Shown here in pieces: positions 28,882-30,161 of a DNA stretch of 64,000 nt. The first letter of the stretch is position 1; every line of letters begins with the position of its first letter. The position numbers were made by a program, and so were the translations under genes. The stretch lies in sequence record PQ511148.1; one strand, given 5' to 3'. The notes under the pieces were generated by a model that made no database searches, was not told the DNA's origin, and was given only the letters and a program-made list of their open reading frames with translations. The stretch is from Escherichia phage NHEP10.

Positions 28882-29697
28882 TTAACAATTTACAGACCAA
28901 GTCCATTTGGACGAATCTAAAGGAAAGTTTTGAATCGTCCACCATGGCTGCATATTGGTTGGTCCTGGGGTTCGCCAGGTATACGGATTCGACGGACCGC
29001 CAATTTGATTAGGCCATGCACCTGGACTTGTTGTACCAGATTCTTTAAGCAAATCCGCCAATCGTTTTAAAAGGTCTTCACGATCTGAATCTGACTTATG
29101 CTCAGGTGGAACTAAACGAGATTCAATATCATCCCACGTGTGTACACGTTGTGCAGTACGAGGAATGGCATCACGTTCACCACGAGCCAACCAATAAATC
29201 GGTACATTAAGAATTTCTGCTGCATGGTCACAGTGATGAGCTAAATCGTCAACGTAACAAATCACGTTATATTTTGTTTTAGCTAGTTCGAATAATTGTT
29301 CCTTTGAAGAATCATGTCCACACATCATTACTTCAGAAAAGGCGCCTGGGAACAAAGCATTCAAATTAAATTGTCTATTCAATCGAGCATCAATTGAATC
29401 ACCTAGCGCCGTCACGGCTACAAAATTATAGTCTTCTTTTAGTTTATTGATAACTCGAAGAGCATCCGAATAAGGCGCTAAGTAACGAATAAAATCAGAG
29501 CGATTATATTTTTCTATTAATTGTTTACCGAGGTTATCGTCGGTATTGAATAGTTTACCAGGAGAAATAAATTTTTCGTCCTGAATCATTTTTAAAATAT
29601 GTTCTAATGGAAGATTATATTTTTGGGCAAAATATGGAAGTCCAGATTGCCAGCTTAAACATACACCATCAATATCAGTCAAAATAGTAGGCTTCAT
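28882..29697 (-). CDS. HAD-superfamily-like hydrolase (30.2-like by position)
   Basis: 271 aa; N-terminal DxD-type motif LTDIDGV typical of HAD phosphatases. Confidence 0.55.
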   Translation of the reverse strand: MKPTILTDIDGVCLSWQSGLPYFAQKYNLPLEHILKMIQDEKFISPGKLFNTDDNLGKQLIEKYNRSDFIRYLAPYSDALRVINKLKEDYNFVAVTALGDSIDARLNRQFNLNALFPGAFSEVMMCGHDSSKEQLFELAKTKYNVICYVDDLAHHCDHAAEILNVPIYWLARGERDAIPRTAQRVHTWDDIESRLVPPEHKSDSDREDLLKRLADLLKESGTTSPGAWPNQIGGPSNPYTWRTPGPTNMQPWWTIQNFPLDSSKWTWSVNC

Positions 29698-30161
29698 AAA
29701 GAGTCTCTTAATAGGTTTAACACATCAATAAATTCAGCTTCGGTTAGTATTGTATCATCTTTTGTTAGACCACTAGCCATGCTGTGCTTCAAAATTTTTC
29801 CTTTAGAGGCTTGTAAGGCATCACGAAACCCCTTGTTTTGGATCGCTGCTTCAAAATATGCATTTGTGTATAATTCTTTCCACGCTGGGGAGTATCTTGA
29901 AAACGGAACTCCAAGCCAGAAGAGGGTCCCACGGTCCTGAGCTCTAGCATAAGACCTTCCAGCTTGTTGGGCGGCAAGCCCGGATAACCCAAATATACGT
30001 TTTTGTTGTTCAACGTTTTTCACCTTACATCCTTGGAGAAATCCTTCAAGACCTCCGAATTGAATACCATCCATAACAAAAGGCCATTGAGCAAAGTTAC
30101 TTAATGCGCATGACGGCCATTTGAAATTGCTTCTTATTTCTAATTCACACATCTTTAACAC
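29694..30161 (-). CDS. NADAR/YbiA-like (DUF1768-type) protein, 30.3-like by position
   Basis: 155 aa; motif LSNFAQWP..MDG....E.FLQGCK aligns with E. coli YbiA FSNFAAWP..VDG....EHYFQAQK as recalled. Confidence 0.6.
   Translation of the reverse strand: MLKMCELEIRSNFKWPSCALSNFAQWPFVMDGIQFGGLEGFLQGCKVKNVEQQKRIFGLSGLAAQQAGRSYARAQDRGTLFWLGVPFSRYSPAWKELYTNAYFEAAIQNKGFRDALQASKGKILKHSMASGLTKDDTILTEAEFIDVLNLLRDSL

Follow-up and report, generated by a model that had tools for sequence, protein, structure and literature searches.

An orthologue of T4 adfN (30.3), a very probable anti-DarTG1 gene, in an RB69-like Escherichia phage

Organization of the adfN locus

The window analysed here, a 64,000-nucleotide stretch of DNA from Escherichia phage NHEP10 (PQ511148.1), carries on its minus strand an open reading frame at 29694-30161 that encodes 155 amino acids if it is read from a GTG codon. 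The initial annotation took the gene in this form. The frame is present on that strand, but translation is likely to start at the ATG at 30152 and to give a protein of 152 amino acids, because this start agrees with the annotations of T4 and Escherichia phage NHEP36 and with the N-termini of all close homologues, which read MSELEIR or MCELEIR. The NHEP36 record is 100% identical across positions 28600-30400 of the window. The gene is referred to below as adfN, the name of its T4 counterpart (gene 30.3), and the features of the locus are collected in Table 1.

Table 1. Features of the adfN region, in window coordinates
Feature	Position	Strand	Basis
alt, capsid-packaged ADP-ribosyltransferase; a neighbour, outside the proposed AdfN mechanism	24782..26869	-	PF03496 at E=6.9e-28
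Terminator-like hairpin AGAGCC-TTCG-GGCTCT then TTTT (26906-26925), then TATAAATT (26890-26897)	26890..26925	-	Between alt.1 and alt; read from the sequence
Gene 30.2, HAD-superfamily phosphatase-like	28882..29697	-	97.8% identical to RB69 30.2; start overlaps adfN stop by 4 nt (ATGA)
adfN (T4 gene 30.3 orthologue), 152 aa, predicted NADAR-fold DNA ADP-ribosylglycohydrolase	29694..30152	-	ATG at 30152; activity by analogy
3' end of adfN, C-terminal helix (H138-151), intact	29694..29743	-	Alignment of the window with RB69 and T4; identity to T4 over the last 27 residues
His123, hallmark of the phage NADAR clade, end of last strand, codon CAC	29784..29786	-	Invariant in the close-homologue and 59-sequence alignments
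30.3' ORF, another frame within 30.3, open, 74 aa, TTG start; probably not a gene	29789-30013	-	dN/dS
Lys43, putative phosphate-binding lysine, codon AAG	30024..30026	-	Family consensus; aligned to YbiA Lys (profile search, hhalign)
Glu36, putative catalytic glutamate, codon GAA	30045..30047	-	Invariant in 59-sequence alignment; aligned to YbiA Glu (profile search, hhalign)
Gene 30.4	30145..30360	-	phrog_2042 at E=3e-35; stop overlaps adfN start by 8 nt; T4 layout alike
In-frame GTG extension of adfN (to 155 aa), probably untranslated	30153..30161	-	T4 and NHEP36 annotate the ATG equivalent to window 30152
DAHP synthase	33812-34804	-	PF00793 at E=5e-75

The gene order, 30.4-30.3-30.2-30.1-30-alt.1-alt, is that of T4 and RB69, and adfN occupies the same place in it. 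The overlap between the stop codon of 30.4 and the start of adfN is common to the window, T4 and the NHEP36 annotation. The overlapping ORF 30.3' that is annotated in T4 was considered as a coding gene and rejected, with dN/dS values of 0.65-2.9 and a stop codon in one relative.

Comparison of the region 23434-34000 shows that gp54, alt, ligase, 30.1, 30.2, 30.8, 31 and 31.1 share 97-98% nucleotide identity with RB69. The same genes share 68-88% with T4, or give no detectable match. By these identities the phage genome is RB69-type (Mosigvirus-like). At the nucleotide level the adfN gene itself shares 93.6% identity with RB69 and 93.7% with T4, and it is a mosaic: its 5' third is nearer to RB69, the stretch 30009-29860 is nearer to T4 (5 versus 19 differences), and the 3' third hardly differs among the three. 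Around it lies a conserved island at approximately 29560-30110, consisting of adfN and the first ~130 nt of 30.2, in which T4 and RB69 differ by ~8%, while in the flanks they differ by 30-50%. The pattern suggests either recombinational exchange or very strong constraint. The adfN locus is also where laboratory crosses select DarTG1-resistant chimeras.

Other T4-like coliphages often have a truncated 30.3 (89-109 amino acids) or one joined in frame to portions of 30.7, of 30.8 or of a PF11097 protein. Judging from these alleles in relatives, the 30.3-30.8 block seems to suffer deletions frequently.

Relationship of AdfN to NADAR proteins and its key residues

The AdfN protein matches the phage family PF08010 (Phage_30_3) at E=1e-69, with 233 bits against a cut-off of 36 and coverage of the full model (1-138). 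T4 gp30.3 has the same length, and 147 of 152 residues are identical (97%). The five differences, S2C, R11K, R51K, V120I and I125M, are all conservative. The initial annotation had proposed profile searches with both the phage 30.3 family and PF08719 (NADAR). Only the former succeeds with the single protein; PF08719 gives no match at E<=1 and its gathering score is not reached. Searches of Pfam, NCBIfam and PDB sequences with the single protein likewise returned no NADAR match, phmmer against the PDB sequences finding none, and the riboflavin-intermediate N-glycosidase model TIGR02464 reached E=0.15 and 12.3 bits against a cut-off of 73.7.

A word-indexed search for homologues retrieved 19 close relatives only, and an exhaustive search of representatives was used afterwards, giving 1378 clusters. 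The family profile is an alignment of 59 diverse sequences drawn from these clusters. Searching this profile against 177,635 PDB sequences gives E. coli YbiA (2b3w) as the top match (E=0.0026), and in the reverse direction YbiA matches PF08010 at E=0.0041. Aligning the 59-sequence family alignment with YbiA using hhalign gives a probability of 93.8% (E=1.7e-7). Among the 59 members, 21 have weak, sub-threshold matches to PF08719, the best at E=1.1e-4. The profile match falls on the motif that had been quoted in the initial annotation as a YbiA/NADAR signature. This motif is present in the reading frame as ALSNFAQWPFVMDGIQFGGLEGFLQGCK, but the spacing from MDG to E is six residues and not four. 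Set ungapped against the corresponding stretch of YbiA (SNFAAWPIKVDGKTWPTSEHYFQAQK), it is identical at 11 of 26 positions, among them SNFA, WP, DG, E, Q and K, and it is the region aligned to YbiA by both HMMER and hhalign. By these comparisons the resemblance of the phage protein to YbiA is above chance.

The predicted structure has the alpha+beta fold of NADAR proteins, and a fold search with it returns NADAR structures only. Together with the hhalign result this bears out the NADAR/YbiA-like domain that had been read from the motif. Membership of the NADAR superfamily is supported by the predicted fold and by profile-profile evidence, and AdfN falls within the superfamily as part of a separate phage family, PF08010. 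The protein differs from E. coli YbiA (2B3W; PF08719) in that the two are 17-20% identical and it lies below the PF08719 and TIGR02464 thresholds. The last-strand glutamate that, with TIGR02464, marks the YbiA family is also absent, with His123 in its stead. YbiA is encoded by a chromosomal gene in a LexA-controlled operon and has a reported role as an N-glycosidase of riboflavin intermediates.

The residues expected of a PF08010-type protein, E36, K43 and H123, are all present, as is the full-length C-terminal helix (138-151 in the model). In T4 AdfN, E36A and K43A impair function (PMC11825919), and Lys43 corresponds to K50 in the NADAR of Phytophthora and to K95 in that of E. coli C7 (PMC11543638). 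In the predicted structure His123 directly follows the strand E120-122. This last-strand position holds His in the phage clade, Glu in the YbiA family and Asp in DarT1-linked NADARs (PMC11543638, PMC11125620); the bioinformatic definition of the superfamily, as cited in PMC11543638, also has His replacing the YbiA Glu in phage members. In the hhalign alignment His123 and the YbiA Glu are offset by one residue, with a one-residue gap between them. The assignment of His123 as the counterpart of the YbiA catalytic Glu is thus ambiguous by one residue in hhalign, and the two are equated in PMC11543638 and PMC11125620. The adfN gene is intact, retains its key residues and is under purifying selection, with dN/dS of 0.06-0.11 against T4 and other T-even alleles.

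Distant gp30.3-type NADAR members are found fused to BspA-type leucine-rich repeats, to a GDSL lipase/acylhydrolase, to Lgt (prolipoprotein diacylglyceryl transferase) and to a weak FtsW/RodA-like membrane domain. Among the distant family proteins there are also some with 30.3 domains in tandem. Some gp30.3-type members may have substrates other than DNA, because the modules in these fusions look neither phage-like nor DNA-related.

Proposed role against DarTG1 and alternative readings

T4 gp30.3 (NP_049816) was named AdfN, for anti-DarT factor NADAR, by Johannesman et al. (2025; PMC11825919). In that work T4 and T2 adfN deletions gave no plaques on DarTG1 hosts, RB69 was rescued on DarTG1 by ectopic AdfN, and purified AdfN stripped ADP-ribose from DNA, so that AdfN was reported as both necessary and sufficient for T-even phages to resist DarTG1 (PMC11825919). 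Similarly, 30.3/adfN insertions were lost on DarTG1 in a transposon screen of T4 (bioRxiv 10.1101/2025.11.20.689424). NADARs reverse the guanine ADP-ribosylation made by DarT1 (PMC11543638), and those tested hydrolyse guanine-ADP-ribose but not thymine-ADP-ribose (PMC11125620, PMC11543638). The same specificity was found in vitro for a 'T4 phage NADAR (gp30.3)', which was active on guanine-ADP-ribose DNA and inactive on thymine-ADP-ribose (PMC11125620). The construct used there is given as residues 1-208, a length that disagrees with the 152 amino acids of gp30.3 in the T4 reference record. In uninfected E. coli, T4 AdfN neither rescues DarT1 toxicity nor replaces DarG1 (PMC11825919, PMC11125620), and according to the literature it protects non-T-even phages only in part. 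T4 AdfN thus has its full effect only in T-even infection, so that a phage factor or a DNA feature must also matter.

The gene in the window is the orthologue of T4 adfN (30.3), and its NADAR-fold product is very probably an eraser of DNA ADP-ribosylation that acts against DarTG1. The initial annotation had suggested counter-defence against DarT-like toxins, a suggestion upheld by the experiments published for T4 AdfN, which is 97% identical (PMC11825919; bioRxiv 10.1101/2025.11.20.689424). By this identity the present allele would be expected to act like T4 AdfN on guanine-ADP-ribose DNA and against DarTG1. The two share E36, K43, H123, the C-terminal helix, the place between 30.4 and 30.2 and the overlapping stop and start codons. 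They differ in that the T4 gene lies in a Tequatrovirus backbone and the window allele in an RB69-like (Mosigvirus) one, where it is mosaic at the nucleotide level.

The proposed mechanism is as follows. By analogy with T4, adfN would be expressed within the 30.x gene block, treated here as an early transcription unit, and its product would be a small single-domain enzyme with a NADAR fold. In an infected DarTG1 host, the DarT1 toxin would place ADP-ribose on guanines of the phage DNA and block replication. AdfN would hold the ADP-ribose with Lys43 on the phosphates and both Glu36 and His123 on the distal ribose, and would cut the N-glycosidic bond, so that ADP-ribose is freed, guanine is restored and replication resumes. 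AdfN would in this way be an 'orphan antitoxin' that mimics host DarG1.

Several features distinguish AdfN from DarG1 itself, represented by the proteins of E. coli C7 and Geobacter lovleyi (8BAT). The window gene is flanked by the T4 core genes 30.4 and 30.2 and not by DarT1; Pfam scans of the genes at 28603-31696 and of alt, alt.1 and ligase found no DarT-like domain. DarG1, of the BC4488 family, has Asp in the last strand where AdfN has His123. DarG1 also has an N-terminal extension (219 amino acids in 8bat), whereas AdfN has 152 residues and opens directly with the first domain strand (E3-5 in the model). T4 AdfM (Tk.4) resembles AdfN as a phage antitoxin-like enzyme proposed to reverse DNA ADP-ribosylation (bioRxiv 10.1101/2025.11.20.689424). 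It is, however, an anti-DarTG2 macrodomain of unrelated fold, directed at thymine rather than guanine adducts, and its locus is outside the adfN region.

The NADAR identity and the anti-DarT role are already published, the family from 2012 onwards, the chemistry in 2023-2024 and the counter-defence in 2025. The locus therefore adds nothing new to ADP-ribosylation biology, but it confirms that a genuine anti-defence gene can be picked out by reading the raw sequence. The modest additions are the mosaic, unframeshifted adfN in an RB69-type backbone, the 30.3/30.2 island with its unusual conservation between T-even genera and the probable HAD-phosphatase nature of 30.2; as far as the literature was searched, the backbone, the mosaic allele, the island and the details of 30.2 were not found there. 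The phage is predicted to resist DarTG1-carrying hosts, unlike its close relative RB69, which would be useful for host-range prediction and for phage-therapy cocktails.

An alternative main or additional role, the degradation of soluble ADP-ribose-derived molecules (immune signals or by-products of RNA repair) instead of DNA adducts, has been proposed for phage NADARs generally from comparative genomics (PMC9503650). It would suit the occurrence of the 30.3-type domain in many unrelated phages with varied neighbours, as well as the cellular fusions to non-DNA modules. We nevertheless regard it as very unlikely, given that T4 AdfN directly de-ADP-ribosylates DNA and has a clean DarTG1-specific phenotype (PMC11825919), that no soluble substrate has been shown, and that the window offers no link between this gene and genes of NAD salvage or signalling.

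The second alternative concerns Alt, which the initial annotation had identified and had placed, with AdfN, in a possible writer and eraser pair or in a relationship where AdfN tunes Alt activity. AdfN would then be the eraser for Alt (or ModA/ModB), removing ADP-ribose from host proteins modified on arginine, for example the alpha subunit of RNA polymerase. The identification of alt holds, with the PF03496 match over its proposed extent, and the gene is on the same strand as adfN. It is, however, four genes away and not three, with alt.1, 30 (ligase), 30.1 and 30.2 between the two (~2.8 kb).

The linkage of the two genes was examined at 80 viral-contig loci with a 30.3 relative, where neighbours were identified by tblastn and blastp clustering, by which a very divergent ADP-ribosyltransferase (ART) could escape. 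An alt homologue lies within 7 kb of 30.3 in 18 of the 80, all of them T4-like loci with ligase, rIII, gene 31 and cd, and in 4 of the 18 alt is on the opposite strand. At the 57 loci that are not T4-like, no recurrent partner of 30.3, ART or other, was found, with no family present in more than 6 loci once the 30.3 homologue and two families antisense over 30.3 were set aside. The recurrent families at these loci resemble replication proteins, as judged from the sequence of unannotated genes. The linkage to alt is thus T4-type synteny and argues against a functional pair, as does the lack of co-evolution: Alt is 41% identical to T4 Alt at the amino acid level, AdfN 97%. Compared with RB69, alt is 98.3% identical in nucleotide sequence. 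T4 has annotated duplication remnants, alt.-1 and alt.-2, that NHEP36 and RB69 lack; in these two the annotation between alt and gene 54 consists of alt.-3 alone.

The signals between alt.1 and alt point in the same direction. Downstream of the terminator-like hairpin, TATAAATT agrees by eye with 7 of 8 positions of the T4 late-promoter consensus and lies ~20 nt upstream of the alt ATG. The exact octamer, TATAAATA, was not found upstream of alt, and an automatic terminator scan did not list the UUCG-loop hairpin. A sigma-70 promoter scan of 26.8-33 kb gave 22 candidates where 18.8 are expected, which is not above chance. Because the hairpin, T run and late-type TATAAATT part alt from the 30.x genes, alt looks like its own late transcription unit. 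This arrangement would fit Alt as a separately transcribed protein that is packaged in the capsid, as noted in the T4 record, and injected; both the separation and the packaging count against AdfN as its eraser. Guanine-ADP-ribose is moreover the only substrate shown for NADARs, activity on arginine-ADP-ribosylated protein being unreported, and the deletion phenotype is confined to DarTG1 hosts, adfN being non-essential on plain K-12 (bioRxiv 10.1101/2025.11.20.689424). Pairing with Alt, or tuning of it, is therefore highly improbable.

A weakened or dead allele, as in RB69, would be conceivable in an RB69-like phage whose flanking genes are 97-98% identical to RB69 and whose relatives commonly carry truncated or fused 30.3 alleles. 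In RB69 itself (gp30.3, NP_861905), which shares the genomic backbone of the window, an extra T follows nucleotide 410 of the gene, just past the position equivalent to window 29743. This natural loss-of-function insertion, at position 411, truncates AdfN by 15 residues, which reduces its activity and makes the phage DarTG1-sensitive (PMC11825919). In the three-way alignment the T is absent from the window, where the frame is open for the full 152 amino acids with all key residues present and dN/dS against T4 is 0.06. Loss of function in the present allele therefore has scarcely any probability. As an RB69-like phage here lacks the frameshifting T, the DarTG1 sensitivity of RB69 looks strain-specific and not typical of the group.

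Metabolic damage control by a YbiA-type N-glycosidase acting on riboflavin-pathway intermediates, for which the fold match to YbiA and the faint TIGR02464 match could be cited, is almost certainly wrong, given the large shortfall from the TIGR02464 cut-off, the His in place of the YbiA-family hallmark Glu, the separation of the phage clade from YbiA in published trees (PMC11825919, PMC11125620) and a locus with no riboflavin-pathway context. The reading as an anti-DarTG1 eraser of DNA ADP-ribosylation is thus preferred.

Gene 30.2 and a nearby DAHP synthase gene

Gene 30.2, which is translationally coupled to adfN through the ATGA stop/start overlap, is annotated as 'hypothetical' in T4, RB69 and NHEP36, and a literature search on gp30.2 found nothing relevant. 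Its product conserves the four HAD motifs, with no variation at D8, D10, K132 or D151 and conservation of at least 90% at T96 and D150. A structure prediction built with database homologues has a pLDDT of 86 and a disordered, variable tail rich in W, P and G (residues about 225-271). Foldseek with this model retrieves HAD hydrolases at E about 1e-8, 5'(3')-deoxyribonucleotidases among them.

Distant T4-like phages without 30.1 and 30.4-30.8 still keep the genes 30.3, 30.2 and ligase together. The distributions of adfN and 30.2 are also nearly alike (1510 and 1438 phage records), with matching genus counts. Because of the ATGA coupling, the HAD motifs, the retained adjacency to adfN and ligase, the shared distribution and the conserved island, 30.2 is put forward as a speculative candidate, with only a slim chance of being correct, for the T-even factor that potentiates AdfN or for an enzyme that processes the freed ADP-ribose. 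The pattern could arise from ordinary synteny alone. In the genome-wide transposon screen of T4 on DarTG1, adfN was reported and 30.2 went unmentioned (bioRxiv 10.1101/2025.11.20.689424).

Further along the region, the DAHP synthase gene lies downstream of cd, in the sense of the coding strand, at the place taken by cd.2 in RB69 and by cd.1/cd.2 in T4. DAHP synthase catalyses the first step in aromatic amino acid synthesis. Homologues of the gene are present in 212 phage records, mostly from T4-like phages of enterobacteria.
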